A stretch of 64,000 bases of DNA from a virus. Below are positions 44,065 through 62,669 of the stretch, piece by piece. The notes below the pieces were generated by a model. The model worked only from the letters and a program-made list of their open reading frames with translations, searched no databases and was not told the DNA's origin. Every line of letters begins with the position of its first letter. The first letter of the stretch is position 1. A program made the position numbers and the translations under genes. The stretch covers positions 32,001-96,000 of IMG/VR virus record IMGVR_UViG_3300038468_000223. One strand, 5' to 3'.

Positions 44065-45339
44065 ATGTACCGCCACGTACATTCGATCGGGCTCGGCGCT
44101 TCCGAGTTCGATCAAAATCTCACGACCTATTTGACGACGAACGCTCCGCCGGAGGTCAGGCAGGCGATCTCGACGGAGGCGTCGGCCGAGCAGTTCGCCG
44201 CGCGCTCTCAAGCCACGATCGATTCGATGCGCGACATCGCCGAGGGCAAACAGCTCACGGTGGCGCAAGCAACAACGATCCTGACCACTGCCGCGAGCGC
44301 GATGGCCTTCGTCGCTGCAGGAGGCGTCGGATCGATCCTCGCTGGTGCCGGAGCCGCGGCCGCCACGACCGTCGCGCTCGGCGCCGCCGCTTCGGCCGGT
44401 GCGGTGATGGCGGCGATGGTCGCGGTGGTCATCGTCGTGGTTGCGGCCGTCGGATGGGCGCAAGGTGGGACGGGCAAGTGCGGGGACGCCTCGACGATCC
44501 CGTCCAGCCCTACCGATCCTAGGTGGGTGGAGTTCACGGAATACGGACCAATCGCACAGCCTCGAAATGACTTCGAACGCTGGGCATCTCCAGTTCTAGT
44601 TCTGAACCACGAAATGAACGACAACTGCAGAAGCAGTCTGCCGGACCTTGTGCAGACGCTAGCATCGTTGTGGAATGAGCGGCACGAGGCCACGTCGATC
44701 CTGACCTACATCGGTTACGACATCGACAAGCTTCCTACTTCAGGCCGATACAATTGGCCTGTCTACCCCAATCCACTCAACATCGTCGAGTTCGACCTGC
44801 GTGGTGGATCGACACTCGGCGCGCCGAAAAAGATCTCCGTCAATCTCGGCAAGTTCATTCCTACTACACCTGCAGAGAAGTCGTTGCTGGTTGGACAGCT
44901 CAAAAAGGTGAGCCTGGTCGAACAACTAAACCTGAGCACGCCGTCGACGCAGTCTGCACAAACATCAACCGCGTCGAAAGTGATCGCTGGAGTCGCGGTG
45001 ACCGCAGCGATTTCTGCCGCGGCACTTTGGGCGTACGCCTACTACCAGAAGATCACCTTCGGGTCGGCGTTGTACAAGGTGGTGGGGCGCTTCGCGAAAG
45101 AGAACCCGATCGCCGTCGACGTTCCGCGCCGACGCACGTCGAAGGGACGCAGGCTGGCCTATCGCGTCAGACTCGATGCGTCGCCCTCGATGGAGTATGT
45201 TCAGGTCATGCCGGATGGATCAGCGATCCTGTTGCGCCACGGCCACCAGGTTGCGAAGTTCCGGCCTACGACCTACCAGCTCCCGAAGATCCATGCCGGC
45301 GACGGCGAGCTTCTGATCTTCGTCGATCAGCTCATCTGA
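44065..45339 (+). CDS. Membrane protein with N-terminal IGLG, TMs, KENP and basic C-terminal module
   Basis: TACAGT 6 nt before ATG; hydrophobic segments. Confidence 0.75.
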   Translation: MYRHVHSIGLGASEFDQNLTTYLTTNAPPEVRQAISTEASAEQFAARSQATIDSMRDIAEGKQLTVAQATTILTTAASAMAFVAAGGVGSILAGAGAAAATTVALGAAASAGAVMAAMVAVVIVVVAAVGWAQGGTGKCGDASTIPSSPTDPRWVEFTEYGPIAQPRNDFERWASPVLVLNHEMNDNCRSSLPDLVQTLASLWNERHEATSILTYIGYDIDKLPTSGRYNWPVYPNPLNIVEFDLRGGSTLGAPKKISVNLGKFIPTTPAEKSLLVGQLKKVSLVEQLNLSTPSTQSAQTSTASKVIAGVAVTAAISAAALWAYAYYQKITFGSALYKVVGRFAKENPIAVDVPRRRTSKGRRLAYRVRLDASPSMEYVQVMPDGSAILLRHGHQVAKFRPTTYQLPKIHAGDGELLIFVDQLI

Positions 45340-45352
45340 GGAGAACGCCACG

Positions 45353-46093
45353 ATGCCCACGCTCACGCATCCGATCTTCAGCTCGGCGTACAACTTCGTG
45401 CAGCAGCAGCCGGTAGCCGCCGTGCAGCCGCTGCCGCCGACGCAGACGGTGACGACGCCGATCCAGACGCAGTCTCCGTCACCGCCGGTGATGGCGGTGA
45501 ATCCGCAGGCGCCGGTCACGGCGGCGGTCCCCAACACGAACGGCCTCACCGAGATTGCGGACCGCCTGCTCGCGATGGACCAGGCGGCAGGAGGGCCGCA
45601 GAACATCGCGCAGAACATCGCGGCGGTCCAGAGCAACACCTCCTTCGGACCCGGGAACCCTCCGGTACGCCTGCTCACGGGGCTGCAGAACACGCTCTAC
45701 GGCAACCCGACCCAGAACCCGACCCAGTACAACGCCGATCAGCTCAAGGCGTCGGCGACGTACCTGCGCGACGTGGCAACGCACATGACGGCGCTCGAGG
45801 CGCAGGTGGCGACCCTGCAGCAGCAGCTCGCTGCGGCCAACGCCGTCCCCACCACCACGAACGTGACGGTGCCGCAGGCACCGGCGTCGGGGTCGAGCAT
45901 CAACTGGACCACGCTCCTCGTCAGCGTGGGCGTCATCGCGGCGGTCGGCATCGGCGCTTGGTACGTGATGACGCACCGTCGGAAGCCGGCCGGAGTGCGC
46001 GAGGAGGAAGAGGAAGAGGCTCCGCCGCGCGTGATCGGCGGCGAGAACAAGCGCCTGTTCCCGCCGGCGCCGTCGCAGAAGCGGAAGAAGTGA
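45353..46093 (+). CDS. Gln/Thr/Pro-rich single-TM protein with acidic patch
   Basis: GAGGAG RBS; TM-HRRK-REEEEEE. Confidence 0.75.
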   Translation: MPTLTHPIFSSAYNFVQQQPVAAVQPLPPTQTVTTPIQTQSPSPPVMAVNPQAPVTAAVPNTNGLTEIADRLLAMDQAAGGPQNIAQNIAAVQSNTSFGPGNPPVRLLTGLQNTLYGNPTQNPTQYNADQLKASATYLRDVATHMTALEAQVATLQQQLAAANAVPTTTNVTVPQAPASGSSINWTTLLVSVGVIAAVGIGAWYVMTHRRKPAGVREEEEEEAPPRVIGGENKRLFPPAPSQKRKK

Positions 46094-46103
46094 GGAGAGG
46101 ACG

Positions 46104-46835
46104 ATGAGGAAGATCAAGGCAGCAAAGAAGATCAAACACGGCGCGTACCGCGGCTGGGAAGTGATGGTCATCGACGCGACTGGCGATGGATTCCCCGGAT
46201 TGTGGTGGGCGCACGCCAAACCTGCCGGCCATGCCCAATGGGTGATCTCCACCGAGCAGCGTTCATCCGCACAAGCGTTCGCTGTCATCCACCACAAGAT
46301 CGACAAGATCCTCGCGCGCGCTGGTTTCCAGAAGAACCCCGTCAGCAACACCGAGACTGCCGTCATGATCGTCCTCGGAGCGGCGGCCGTCGGGGCGCTG
46401 CTCTACGCCTTCTGGCCCAAGTCGACGGCGGCGGCACCCGCCGTCACGCCGGCACCCGCACCGACGCCCGTACCGGCTCCGGTGACCAAGCCGAGCATCC
46501 CGGTCGCGACCAACAAGACGGTGGCCGTCGGTCCCGAGGCCAACGGGCAGACCATCACCCTGAACGTAGGGGACGTCCTCATCGTCCGCCTGCCGCAGCA
46601 GTCGGACACGGGCTACGTCTGGGAGTTCGCCGTCACAGGGACCTCGGTCGCTCCCAACACGAGCTACACCGAGGGCGGTACGGGCCCCGGCGACGTCCAG
46701 ACGCTGGTGTCGGTCTTCAACGTCATGAGCCCCGGTTCGACCTTCGTCTCGGCGGTCTCACGCCGCGGCGGCGCGTTCGGCCAGAGCTTCACCGTCGCAG
46801 TCAACGTCCCCTCCACCACCGGCATCGAGGTCTGA
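46104..46835 (+). CDS. Basic module, KNP, TM, then chagasin/Inhibitor_I42-like Ig domain
   Basis: NGQTITLNVGDVLIVRLP..SDTGYVW..G.G..F...PG. Confidence 0.7.
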   Translation: MRKIKAAKKIKHGAYRGWEVMVIDATGDGFPGLWWAHAKPAGHAQWVISTEQRSSAQAFAVIHHKIDKILARAGFQKNPVSNTETAVMIVLGAAAVGALLYAFWPKSTAAAPAVTPAPAPTPVPAPVTKPSIPVATNKTVAVGPEANGQTITLNVGDVLIVRLPQQSDTGYVWEFAVTGTSVAPNTSYTEGGTGPGDVQTLVSVFNVMSPGSTFVSAVSRRGGAFGQSFTVAVNVPSTTGIEV

Positions 46836-46838
46836 TCC

Positions 46839-61386: not shown

Positions 61387-61411
61387 ACGACGAGGGGCAC
61401 AGGAGGTCGTG

Positions 61412-61645
61412 ATGAGCGAGAAGAAGGTGGGCGAGATGGTGGCGGGAGCCCTGGTGGGCGTGCTGCGCGACGTAGCGGTGAAGGCGGTGGGGGCGGCAGT
61501 CGAGAGCGTGCTCGAGGACGTGTCCAAGGGGCTGCAGTCGACCGACGAGAAGGTCGCGCGCACGCGCCGCAAGGTGGCGAAGACCACGCGCCGCCGCAAG
61601 GTCATCGACGTCGAGGTCGTCGACGCCGGCGAGAAGAGGCACTGA
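61412..61645 (+). CDS. Small hypothetical protein
   Basis: AGGAGG RBS. Confidence 0.6.
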   Translation: MSEKKVGEMVAGALVGVLRDVAVKAVGAAVESVLEDVSKGLQSTDEKVARTRRKVAKTTRRRKVIDVEVVDAGEKRH

Positions 61646-62019
61646 TGCGCCGGCGCCCCAAGGTCCGGCACATGTCGGAGCCCGCGGTCTTGCGGCGGGT
61701 GACCTACTTCTACCCGCGCGCCGACGCGGGCGGTGTCCTGCACGGCGAGGCGCTCGCGATGCCGCAGGGGACGCAGCTCGTGATCATCGAGCAGCGCGGT
61801 CACCGCTACCTCGCCATGACGGAGCGCGCGCACCAGAAGTGGTGGGCGTGGCTCGAGGTGGACGCGTTCAGGACCGAGTTCCCGAACCCCATCTCGCGCC
61901 CGCTCGGGGCGGCGCTCGTGTTCGGCGCCGGCGTCGGAGCCGGCGTCCTGCTCACGATGATCCTCAACAGCGCGACGAAGGCGCAGGCGCCTTCGACGGC
62001 CGTCACCGTTCGGAGCTGA
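61645..62019 (+). CDS. Basic module, FPNP, TM
   Basis: TGATG coupling; hydrophobic C-terminal segment. Confidence 0.65.
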   Translation: MRRRPKVRHMSEPAVLRRVTYFYPRADAGGVLHGEALAMPQGTQLVIIEQRGHRYLAMTERAHQKWWAWLEVDAFRTEFPNPISRPLGAALVFGAGVGAGVLLTMILNSATKAQAPSTAVTVRS

Positions 62020-62021
62020 CC

Positions 62022-62669
62022 ATGCCGCTCTCCATCGATCGTTCGTACCCACGCTGGCGCCGGATGGAGCGCGACCTGACGCGCTACTACGAGGAGTGCG
62101 CGTCGAGCGCGCCGGCGAGGTTCCGCGGCAAGCGGCGCAAGAGCTACTGCGCCGGCGTGGCGTGGAAGCGCCTCAAGATGGCGGGGCGCTACCGCGACTA
62201 CCCGGGCTTCGGGCGCGCGGCGGCCGAAGGCCGCGAGAACCCCCTCCCCTCCAAGACCAAGGACGCGCTCATCGCGACCGCGGTCATCGCCGGGGGCTTC
62301 GGCCTGATCCTCTACATGATCTCGAAGCTGCCGAAGAAGGCGCCGGCTCCGCCGCAGCCCTCTCCTCTTCCCGCGACGACGCCCACGGGCATCCCGGTCG
62401 TCCTCACCGAGCCGACCTACTACGTGCACCAGCGCCTCATCGACAGCCTCGACACGCAGGCGATGCGGTGCACCCTCCCCATGTTCGTATTCGCCGGGCC
62501 GAAGTCCGCGGCCGACGCCCTCGCGCGCCAGCTCACGACGCGCGCGCCGATCGGGGGGAGCGGCATGGTCGCCGTCTCGGTCGCCTCGCCGGCCGTCGAG
62601 CCGACGTGCAACTGGCGCCGGGTCTGCCTCGCCGACGGCTCGTGCGTCGGCGCGGTCGGTCTCGGCTGA
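62022..62669 (+). CDS. ChaB-like module, RENP, TM, C-terminal domain ending GAVGLG
   Basis: CAGVAWKR..GRYRDYP shared with 49480. Confidence 0.7.
   Translation: MPLSIDRSYPRWRRMERDLTRYYEECASSAPARFRGKRRKSYCAGVAWKRLKMAGRYRDYPGFGRAAAEGRENPLPSKTKDALIATAVIAGGFGLILYMISKLPKKAPAPPQPSPLPATTPTGIPVVLTEPTYYVHQRLIDSLDTQAMRCTLPMFVFAGPKSAADALARQLTTRAPIGGSGMVAVSVASPAVEPTCNWRRVCLADGSCVGAVGLG

Follow-up and report, generated by a model that had tools for sequence, protein, structure and literature searches.

A short glycine motif recurs across the structural proteins encoded in one stretch of viral DNA, raising the question of whether it is a shared signal and, if so, what reads it. The sequence corresponds to positions 32,001-96,000 of the IMG/VR record IMGVR_UViG_3300038468_000223; one strand was analyzed, coordinates refer to this 64,000-nt window, and all features given below with coordinate ranges lie on the + strand. 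A first-pass annotation had reported G-[LVIM]-G motifs at the termini and domain boundaries of these proteins and had proposed them as a maturation code. All of the cited motifs were found where they had been placed, and the motif is real; its form, however, was drawn too narrowly. The wider form is φ-G-[LVIMF]-[GSA] (φ, hydrophobic residue), often followed by x-x-P, and distant relatives additionally use G-x-L-[SGA]-[GA]-P. Judged by comparison among relatives, this wider form is a genuine short linear signal in a large, uncultured bacterial-virus family. The tag closes short N-terminal leaders, lies in the N-arm of the capsid candidate, which is disordered, immediately follows the catalytic domain of an enzyme, and in inter-domain linkers stands on both flanks of variable spacers.

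Frequency within the genome and fate of the cited sites

The 25 proteins of the structural block contain 26 motifs versus 9.7 +/- 3.1 expected from shuffles; no excess was found in the 123 non-structural proteins of the same genome (26 versus 30 expected). With membrane segments excluded, enrichment is still seen (18 motifs versus 8.0 +/- 2.7 expected) and persists when shuffling is confined to windows of 15-40 residues, but it is only nominal given the post hoc choice of motif. Among 3200 comparable a-[class]-b patterns, G-[LVIM]-G ranks 8th (Poisson p 0.0026); thus, the in-genome excess is at chance level for a motif picked after looking. A concentration at termini, as initially suggested, was not borne out by a rough count, with 5-6 of 18 matches being near-terminal versus 3.4-6.1 expected. 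Probably about half of the G-φ-G matches in this genome are due to chance. Because the excess is nonsignificant once the choice of motif is considered, conservation in relatives provides the only independent test.

This test divided the cited sites. Residues 20-22 of the capsid candidate and residue 380 of the enzyme encoded at 46839 are strongly conserved. Sites kept in the nearest relative, or recurring at a like place, include the N-terminus of the 44065 protein, residues 395 and 590 of the 46839 enzyme, residues 44-46 of the capsid candidate, and the tail of the 49480 protein. Others are not conserved or are otherwise explained, namely the last Gly of the 62022 protein, the repeat and the N-terminal GIG of the LysM protein, and VGIGQ in the 59170 protein. 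The C-terminus GAVGLG (62649..62666) of gene 62022-62669 had served as an illustration of a protein ending exactly in GLG; its homologues end in VGLQ, IGLRA, GVLV, or VGLV, so that only V-G-L is conserved and the final Gly is lost. From these endings, GAVGLG is probably not a tag. The idea of a C-terminal Gly exposed for cross-linking found no support. The RRQGLG between the LysM-protein repeats (54957..54974) reads RRQGPG in the other copy of the internal repeat; no homologues of this protein were detected, and the match is probably due to chance. In the N-terminal GIG, the second Gly occupies what we take to be the conserved Gly position of the LysM fold. VGIGQ in the 59170 protein was rejected as a tag and attributed to chance, its paralogue reading IAIGQ.

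Tags on the capsid candidate and other particle proteins

In the capsid candidate (51590-52924), EMGLG, PVGIG, and GMSGVG occupy residues 18-22, 42-46, and 433-438, respectively. The first belongs to the N-arm tag REMGLGQPP (51638..51664; residues 17-25), and R-x-φ-G-L-G-x-x-P is present in 42/42 capsid homologues, with G20 and G22 invariant and P25 at least 90% conserved. Among non-redundant IMG/VR loci, 28/31 carry a strict G-φ-G in the N-arm, while the remaining three read GYG, GYS, or GGG. The tag region is disordered in the structural model (pLDDT 43-62), and its surroundings vary among homologues. The tag also occurs in a relative of 41% GC and is thus not a by-product of high GC. A second tag, GPVGIG (51710..51727), lies in a variable insertion of the N-arm, and homologues with an insertion there usually contain a second G-φ-G as well (FGLGAP, FGVGQG, LGLGQS, IGLGQT, VGVGQ, EGLGS). 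The C-terminal tail GMSGVG (52886..52903) is likewise disordered (pLDDT 34-42); close relatives show a looser x-G-[LM]-x-P, often Arg-terminated, and distant relatives lack the tail, making it a weak candidate for a tag. A search for the HK97 capsid family returned no match.

The membrane protein encoded at 44065-45339 carries a short N-terminal leader ending in SIGLG (44077..44097; SIGLG, residues 7-11). In its only detectable full homologue, SIGLG-ASEFDQ is replaced by PFGFG-ESEFDQ; the leader differs, while the tag and the downstream sequence are kept. The basic, membrane-anchored protein of gene 49480-51525 bears the tags PMGVG and HGMGVDP in its variable tail (51160..51213). Homologous tails (n=23) contain 31 G-[LVIM]-G motifs versus 10.3 +/- 3.1 expected, at positions that cannot be aligned. 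In distant relatives, G-F-G-L-G or G-φ-G closes the leaders common to unrelated particle proteins whose genes lie downstream of the capsid gene. These leaders are conserved and basic within clades, and collagen-like proteins carry them too.

A transglutaminase-fold enzyme bearing the tag

The candidate reader or cutter, encoded at 46839..48977, is a Cys-His-Asp enzyme of the transglutaminase fold; it also has a coiled-coil region and, at its C-terminal end, membrane anchors. Intein-free orthologues match PF01841 at 25.6-28.7 bits (cut-off 23), and Foldseek returned probability 1.0 to the TGase-like structures 4xz7 and 3isr, with LapG and PeiP also among the matches. The catalytic residues C111, H145, and D161 are invariant among orthologues. 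The gene is found in 31/31 related loci that reach far enough upstream, and a family profile search recovered 272 representative clusters at E <= 1e-30. An intein of 174 residues (47190..47711) is inserted directly before the catalytic Cys, with junctions GAD|CFPKG and VTVSN|CDDLA. Its Hint match is weak (E 0.01). An identical insertion with identical junctions was resolved in 17 of the 27 two-piece matches among the 150 best family representatives. The spliced product had been put forward as the maturation protease. The invariant Cys-His-Asp triad and the presence of the enzyme in 31/31 loci agree with this assignment, but that the enzyme cuts the tag is something we infer.

Three tags punctuate the enzyme. 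The first, GRFVGVGNLP (47964..47993), directly follows the catalytic domain; the form G-D-F-[VI]-G-[VM]-[GSA] occurs at this place in 31/31 loci and, as a strict pattern, in 89/150 representatives. In a model of an orthologue, the confident fold stops at this tag, and pLDDT is <50 from residue 196. The second, PGTGLG (48012..48029), is located just ahead of the coiled-coil domain and corresponds to YGVG-EYANV in P0152, the nearest relative, in which the spacer between these two sites is unrelated in sequence and length. The third, MQQGLG (48597..48614), ends two residues before the first membrane anchor; P0152 (VGVG) and L001 (GVGSP) retain it, whereas L002 does not. All three sites are present in P0152. 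A further G-φ-G was found within 60 residues of the domain-end tag in 52/80 representatives. Composition-keeping shuffles of these 60 residues gave 11.8 +/- 3.4 expected motifs versus 64 observed (z 15.5), compared with 79 versus 31.7 expected in the remaining extension and 49 versus 36.3 in the catalytic domain. Residue preferences flank the motif on both sides and, being two-sided, do not point to a protease subsite pattern.

Some family members carry N-terminal extensions. In 8/9 of these, the extension ends in G-φ-G plus one or two residues before a conserved GFAP-type start (GFALT in two of the eight), and in the ninth the same ending precedes a variant start, GFRP. The enzyme of IMGVR_UViG_3300038468_000223 begins directly with MS-GFAP and has no extension. 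Such an arrangement is what would be expected of a propeptide that can be removed.

Enzyme and tags also occur together in SSIP-1, a cultured, tailless phage with an internal membrane. Its gp34, annotated as structural, belongs distantly to the enzyme family (hhalign 97%, E 1e-10; PF01841 at 29.6 bits), carries a membrane anchor at its C-terminus, and shows a GMG site behind the catalytic domain. The neighboring ORF35, ORF36, gp37, and ORF39 begin with leaders that close in G-[LMV]-[GSA]; GLG and GMG occur in gp37 and ORF36. The SSIP-1 genome is much smaller (44 kb versus 105 kb for the virus studied here), no similarity was detected at the tblastn level, and by profile comparison the capsid candidate is unrelated to SSIP-1 gp45 and gp46. 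Within the literature library searched, no paper connected SSIP-1 to a transglutaminase.

Possible readers of the tag

The motif with its conservation and placement, and the fold, triad, and universality of the enzyme, are observed; a cut, its bond, and its agent are what we infer from them. The reading that we tentatively favor, at a little under even confidence, is that the tag marks sites for processing and that the transglutaminase-fold enzyme, whose gene an intein interrupts, cuts there. A protease of particle maturation would recognize and cut the tag, and the virion Cys-His-Asp enzyme encoded at 46839 is the strongest candidate for that role. This enzyme would become active only once its intein is spliced out. 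Anchored in or near the internal membrane, it would act after assembly, stripping the capsid protein, membrane-anchored particle proteins, and its own chain of leaders and spacers. The cut could fall after G-x-G, or between x and G. All comparative data fit the earlier proposal of a shared, protease-read G-φ-G code on particle proteins; the cut itself and its position go beyond those data. No adenain, Ulp1, HK97-type (PF04586), ClpP, or S49 protease was found in the genome.

Several known systems resemble this arrangement in part. Adenain-type enzymes (adenovirus AVP, ASFV pS273R, poxvirus I7L, and the virophage protease) are virus-encoded particle Cys proteases that process several structural precursors at short Gly motifs. 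The candidate described here differs in its transglutaminase fold and bacterial host, its cutting is proposed from sequence, and the hydrophobic residues of its tag lie between the glycines and just before them, rather than at P4. In phage T4, whose capsid-targeting sequences are removed by the prohead protease gp21, and in the double-glycine systems served by C39 peptidases, unrelated proteins carry a common short N-terminal leader that routes them to a site of assembly or export and is then taken off at a fixed motif by a dedicated protease. Those proteases differ from the candidate: the T4 head has the HK97 fold and gp21, an assemblin-like serine protease, cleaves on the C-terminal side of Glu, whereas C39 domains are parts of ABC exporters and cleave after GG. 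In mavirus, cleavage of the capsid protein by the viral protease occurs at GG|X and GY|G, the latter a precedent for a bond between x and G, and several sites lie close together within a terminal domain that is disordered (PMC6048507). A TGase-like fold with a Cys-His-Asp triad is also found in the site-specific protease LapG, which cleaves LapA between two small residues, Ala|Ala (PMC3032545). LapG and other BTLCP proteins share the transglutaminase-like fold and triad of the candidate; however, LapG is a periplasmic, calcium-dependent adhesin regulator rather than a virion protein, its sequence relation is remote, and its site motif differs. The fold also covers non-proteases, including true transglutaminases, PNGase, and the phage-type cell-wall isopeptidase PeiP; thus, the enzyme could instead act in entry or lysis, fitting the LysM proteins encoded nearby.

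The conservation and placement of the tag are equally expected of a docking tag. The tag may never be cut and may instead address proteins by fitting a binding pocket, either on the capsid protein or on some other scaffold partner, thereby bringing membrane proteins and the enzyme into the particle and linking its membrane with its shell. Uncut docking signals of this kind are known from encapsulin cargo-loading peptides and from the fibre tail motif of adenovirus. The encapsulin peptides share with the tag alternating small and hydrophobic residues and a position in disordered ends, and they direct proteins inside the shell, but they are usually C-terminal and bind an HK97-fold shell, whereas the tags described here are mostly N-terminal or internal. 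Docking would account for a tag on many unrelated particle proteins, often in several copies per disordered linker, which suggests binding by avidity, as well as for the conserved basic leaders shared with collagen-like proteins and the constraints on both sides of the motif. Nevertheless, the optional N-terminal extensions of the enzyme stop exactly at the tag, ahead of a start that other members reach by translation initiation, and removal fits this better than docking. Variable spacers between two conserved tags likewise resemble excised peptides, and a conserved Cys-His-Asp enzyme tagged at its own domain border would need another role. We regard docking as rather unlikely, while giving it more weight than the readings that follow.

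It is unlikely, to a further degree, that the tag has no common reader, the conserved copies reflecting local structure (for instance a tight turn of the capsid arm or the final strand of the enzyme domain) and the rest elastin-like linkers and chance. The in-genome excess lies within chance for a motif picked post hoc, several cited sites proved to be fold features or unconserved, and the linkers, rich in G, V, P, and A with P-V-G-V-G-like strings, do resemble elastin-like sequence. Against this, the 60-residue linkers retain their excess when each is shuffled with its composition kept, the same tag ends the leaders of unrelated proteins, and the capsid tag lies in a disordered region of the model rather than in a packed turn.

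The least probable reading has the tag cut by a RadC-like JAB metalloenzyme or a host protease, with the transglutaminase-fold protein, itself a substrate, serving as a cell-wall or other enzyme, as the PeiP match and nearby LysM genes might suggest; this fits poorly with a gene that sits in the module core, adjoins the capsid gene, is universal in the family, and keeps its pairing with the tags in SSIP-1. The RadC-like protein (40296..41060; PF04002 at 101 bits) has an intact HxHx7Sx2D motif and a gene syntenic in L001, L016, and L031, upstream of the structural block as it is here, which makes it a possible second candidate protease. Cleavage by JAB-type enzymes typically follows a Gly-Gly end. 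Many phages and plasmids that lack any such tag commonly carry RadC-like genes, for which we know of no demonstrated protease activity.

The gene adjoining that of the transglutaminase-fold enzyme (46104..46835) encodes a membrane-anchored protein with a chagasin-like (I42) domain and was not found in relatives. Its PF09394 match (E 9.6e-6; 26.2 bits versus a cut-off of 27.2) suggests a possible cysteine-protease inhibitor.

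Glycine tags in the capsid candidate and other structural proteins

The capsid candidate (51590-52924, plus strand) has 97 homologues on metagenomic contigs, the largest of about 200 kb. Alignment of 42 capsid homologues revealed no variation at G20 and G22 and very little at P25, giving the consensus R-x-φ-G-L-G-x-x-P (where φ is hydrophobic), within an N-terminal stretch that varies in both length and sequence. Where homologues carry an insertion after this first tag, the insertion usually bears a second G-φ-G. Related loci were collected from IMG/VR with 10 kb on either side (36 loci, 31 non-redundant); the capsid tag is present in 28 of the 31, and the other three read GYG, GYS, and GGG at the equivalent position. 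The tags are also kept in locus L002 (IMGVR_UViG_3300045391_004661), which has 41% GC; high GC is therefore not their cause. Since the other family members lie at 59-71% GC, hosts across the family differ widely in base composition.

Modeling of the capsid candidate (pLDDT 82) left residues 1-55 and 430-444 disordered, which places all three capsid motifs in loose ends. The candidate was modeled as a beta-sandwich with weak jelly-roll matches (VIA-align, Z 5-6), including PRD1 P3 (Z 5.5, 176 aligned residues), HHIV-2, SPV1, PBCV-1, and EhV-201, all below Z 6. Assignment to the double jelly-roll capsids of the PRD1-adenovirus lineage would call for two vertical jelly rolls and a significant match. 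A Foldseek search against the PDB returned no meaningful TM-score (best E 9.5e-4 at TM 0.11), and one against BFVD returned nothing significant. Encapsulin-type cargo loading needs an HK97-fold shell, whereas PF05065 gave no match and this candidate is modeled as a beta-sandwich.

Tags recur in other products of the structural block. Protein 49480 is membrane-anchored and basic over its N-terminal half, and 31 motifs (10.3 expected) were counted in the variable tails of 23 homologues. Within 49480-50700, the Lys/Ala-rich, histone H1-like basic half gives way to an E-N-P motif and then to a conserved two-helix membrane domain. Homologues of 62022 likewise have an invariant E-N-P ahead of the anchor (N73 and P74 in alignment A3). 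In three related loci (L015, L028, and L031), the tails of the 49480 homologues contain two or three tandem copies of a unit, G-D-S-P-Y-P-D-A-x-x-A-L-R-x-x-A-G-V-S, roughly 19 residues long and closing with a tag-like G-V-S. The protein encoded at 44065 starts with an 11-residue leader, and its one homologue has other leader residues but keeps G-φ-G and the following SEFDQ.

In the distant clade, several unrelated proteins encoded downstream of the capsid gene have leaders that end in G-F-G-L-G or G-φ-G and look similar to the clade's capsid arm. A second form of the tag, G-x-L-[SGA]-[GA]-P, was found there at three places: the enzyme tail, the capsid arm, and the stretch past the membrane domain of the 49480 homologue. 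What the two forms share is therefore a hydrophobic residue and then a small one, preceded at one or two positions by Gly. Collagen-like G-P-T-G-P-x-G proteins at four related loci (L020:19072, L022:16380, L031:19806, and L016:18153) have the leader I-I-G-x-G-R-Y-x-x-E-x-Y-P, similar to the N-arm of the capsid in their clade.

The first-pass annotation had proposed a second maturation code on the structural proteins, cleaved after GxG, and each motif that it listed is present at its place. The structural block contains 26 G-[LVIM]-G in comparison with 9.7 +/- 3.1 expected from shuffles, and the other 123 proteins of the genome contain 26 versus 30 expected. The excess persists outside predicted membrane segments (18 versus 8.0 +/- 2.7) and survives shuffling within windows of 15-40 residues (18 versus 8.4-9.2). 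Because the motif was picked after reading the sequence, it was ranked among 3200 patterns of the same form, where it came 8th (Poisson p 0.0026), as expected from chance alone. Moreover, the proposed placement at termini was not borne out, as no enrichment was seen near protein ends in this genome. On account of this chance-level rank and lack of terminal enrichment, the in-genome count is no evidence by itself. Totals over the related loci show a modest excess (276 G-φ-G versus 185 expected), and bulk enrichment was rejected as proof of the motif on the basis of these totals and the rank; the wider pattern G-φ-[GSA] shows no excess over the same loci (566 versus 550). When the capsid and enzyme are excluded, the relatives carry 3.2 motifs per 1000 residues in the first 20 residues and 1.3-1.8 in the next two bins, which is only suggestive of terminal enrichment. 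The motif observation is real, yet overstated for this genome. Across 42151-62669, G-[KR]-F is more over-represented than G-[LVIM]-G (9 versus 1.3 expected outside membrane segments), with examples such as SGKFRLT and GGRFRIS in the three paralogues 56954, 58698, and 59170.

Conservation in homologues divided the sites. It held for the capsid, the enzyme, the 49480 tails, and the 44065 leader, but the final Gly of 62022, whose GLG ending had been read as a ready-made product end, is not conserved. The internal repeat GLG of the LysM protein was discarded because the other copy reads GPG, and VGIGQ of 59170 because a paralogue has IAIGQ. The N-terminal GIG of the LysM protein includes what we take to be the conserved Gly of the LysM fold.

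The transglutaminase-fold enzyme

Gene 46839-48977 (plus strand) is interrupted by an intein. Its intein-free orthologues score above the PF01841 cut-off of 23 bits (28.7 in L016, 26.2 in L031, and 25.6 in L028), and 46839 itself reaches 12.4 bits over its C-terminal half only, as the intein splits the gene. C111, H145, and D161 are invariant in the enzyme alignment (A2), and a D-C-[DEGN] box occurs in 119 of 150 representatives, most of the others carrying an intein at this point. Foldseek matched the enzyme model (pLDDT 73) to 4xz7, 3isr, 3kd4, TgpA, and TglA with probabilities of 0.97-1.0 and TM 0.32-0.42; putative proteases, LapG, and the isopeptidase PeiP are among its matches. This papain/transglutaminase-like fold covers proteases (LapG and CPR-C4), true transglutaminases, PNGase, and PeiP. 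Gene 46839 encodes a transglutaminase-fold enzyme, for which a peptidase role, rather than cross-linking or amidase activity, is a candidate. At E <= 1e-30, a profile search recovered 272 representative clusters, whose contigs measure 60-200 kb, and the family is without any cultured member.

The intein (47190-47711, plus strand; 174 residues) is absent from orthologues. It lies in-frame at a conserved site directly before the catalytic Cys, with junctions GAD|CFPKG and VTVSN|CDDLA, starting with Cys and ending with Asn followed by Cys; its match to PF01079 (Hint) is weak (E 0.01, 15.9 bits, cut-off 29.7). Among the 150 best family representatives, the intein (D|CFP...VTVSN|CDD) was resolved in 17, the probable total being 27, with mini forms of 139-175 residues and long forms of 288-324 residues. 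Its position at the catalytic Cys further points to the importance of this residue.

Directly after the catalytic domain, G-D-F-[VI]-G-[VM]-[GSA] is found in 31 of 31 loci and, as a strict pattern, in 89 of 150 representatives; the confidence of the enzyme model ends at this domain-end tag. Further G-[LVIM]-G were counted over 80 representatives that are mutually <= 50% identical. The 60 residues past the domain-end tag contain 64 motifs in comparison with 11.8 +/- 3.4 expected (z 15.5), the remainder of the C-terminal extension 79 versus 31.7 (z 8.6), and the catalytic domain 49 versus 36.3 (z 2.1). All three sites of 46839 are kept in its nearest relative, with a spacer between the first two that is unrelated in sequence and length. 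At the other end of the protein, eight of nine N-terminally extended enzymes have extensions ending in G-φ-G plus one or two residues, after which a conserved GFAP-type start follows; the ninth ends likewise and continues with the variant start GFRP. The 46839 protein of this virus begins directly with MS-GFAP, without an extension.

No homologue of the coiled-coil half of 46839 was detected as a separate gene within 10 kb in relatives with short enzymes. These short forms (for example, the one at related locus L024:5286-5957) have a conserved tail, L-D-L-L-Y-P-G-I-R/K, about 30 residues past the domain-end tag, and many capsid homologues have Arg as their last residue (at 52922, the end of the capsid gene, in the window). 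Judging from these sequences, the Arg end and the enzyme tail may constitute a separate C-terminal docking peptide.

Candidate readers of the tag

The tag is found at the ends of leaders and of optional extensions that precede a common mature start, on both sides of variable spacers, and at the domain border of the enzyme, and for these reasons we read it as a putative processing signal. G-φ-G would be recognized by a particle protease, and the transglutaminase-fold enzyme, the only recognizable cutter candidate inside the module, would be the protein that cuts it. We hold this reading tentatively, at somewhat less than an even chance, on the strength of comparative sequence patterns and analogy. 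The earlier interpretation, in which the spliced 46839 protein cleaves after GxG, is plausible and gains much from the relatives, and is unproven. Its further suggestion, that cleavage might expose a C-terminal Gly for cross-linking, found no Gln/Lys pattern and no other support.

Precedents exist for both halves of the proposed pair. LapG, a Cys-His-Asp protease with a transglutaminase-like fold, cuts between two small residues (PMC3032545), and a virophage capsid protein is cut by the viral protease at GG|X and GY|G, with several such sites close together (PMC6048507). Adenain-type (clan CE) systems use (M/I/L)-X-G-X|G or (M/I/L)-X-G-G|X, with the hydrophobic residue at P4; the tags described here include G-x-G, but their conserved hydrophobic residue stands directly before the first Gly (P3 if the cut is x|G) rather than at P4. 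None of five virus protease families searched by profile matched the genome; among them, the adenain-type PF00770 and PF02902 gave nothing at E <= 1 over the full 105.5 kb.

A docking tag that is never cut would leave comparative traces identical to those of a processing signal; we regard such a tag as unlikely, though worth keeping in mind. That the tag has no common reader at all, given the in-genome count on one side and the positions kept in relatives on the other, seems to us improbable.

Slightly more improbable is a tag cut by another enzyme, the second candidate being the RadC-like JAB protein encoded at 40296-41060 (PF04002, 101 bits), which has an intact HxHx7Sx2D metal site in AHNHPSGKSQPSNAD. 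Its counterparts (L001:1361-2038, L016:385-1524, and L031:2925-3539) lie just upstream of the structural block and are syntenic in both clades. In distant relatives, a small gene often precedes the JAB gene, and the one in L016 has a weak Cpn10/GroES-like match (E 0.03). Adjoining the enzyme gene is 46104-46835, encoding a membrane-anchored, chagasin-like (I42) protein (PF09394, 26.2 bits, E 9.6e-6, just below the cut-off of 27.2), and searches of relatives gave no counterpart. By its predicted domain, this protein would fit protease control.

Least probable, and in our view very doubtful, is a reading in which the transglutaminase-fold enzyme works beyond trimming as a sortase-like transpeptidase: it would cut at G-φ-G and transfer the resulting carboxyl end to an amine of either the capsid protein or some membrane component. 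If true, this would stitch particle proteins covalently to the shell or membrane and amount to enzyme-made chain-mail or anchoring in a bacterial virus.

A short glycine motif that directs the maturation or addressing of particles, as the sequences suggest here, would be of a known kind; what would be new is its occurrence in an uncultured bacterial-virus family and with a different enzyme fold. To our knowledge, glycine-motif systems described so far come from eukaryotic viruses and rely on adenain-type enzymes. We also know of no maturation protease described for tailless membrane-containing bacterial viruses (PRD1, PM2, and SSIP-1), and none was found for such viruses in the searchable literature, nor did our literature search find a paper on this virus family or on the pairing of enzyme and tag. 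If the processing-signal reading is true, a very large uncultured family reached the glycine-motif solution independently with a different protease fold, and a short tag marks what gets trimmed, or addressed, as particles assemble. In that case the tag would be useful as an annotation key, picking out particle proteins in genomes without matches to known phage families; it would also predict mature protein ends and supply an enzyme and a peptide substrate that can be tested directly as a pair.

Genome setting and comparison with SSIP-1

The virus record comprises 105,511 bases with overlapping ends and 67% GC, the window covering bases 32001-96000. The structural block (42151-62669) consists of about 25 genes, all on the plus strand, and many of its products are membrane-anchored. 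In its replication half, the window is ordinary and phage-like, with a family A polymerase, a primase-polymerase, helicases, ThyX, and RadC. Ten proteins (nine of the structural block and one intein-free enzyme orthologue) had no match in PHROGs, and tblastn of the capsid candidate and enzyme against 50,697 phage records gave none. Searches of the genome for an HK97 capsid (PF05065), a terminase, and an FtsK-type ATPase were negative.

Five genes are kept across the related loci: 46839, 49480, the capsid candidate, 53011, and 53617. The block opens with 42151-44022, encoding a 623-residue protein with long poly-proline runs and P-P-G-Y-G repeats that has homologues in 11 related loci; at the equivalent position in the distant clade, three proteins, whose homology is unconfirmed, end in W-G-M-P.

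A distant homologue of the enzyme is gp34 of SSIP-1, a cultured tailless phage with an internal membrane. The enzyme-family profile matched gp34 with 97% probability (E 1e-10, 128 columns), and gp34 passes PF01841. Its neighbours ORF35, ORF36, gp37, and ORF39 have leaders ending in G-[LMV]-[GSA], and gp34 and gp37 are annotated as SSIP-1 structural proteins. Among searchable papers, none connects SSIP-1 with a transglutaminase. The leaders of 44065 (M-Y-R-H-V-H-S-I-G-L-G) and of SSIP-1 ORF36 (M-S-H-R-H-V-H-...-Q-G-M-G; L038:8846-9202) have an R-H-V-H start in common, a shared string that may be a coincidence.
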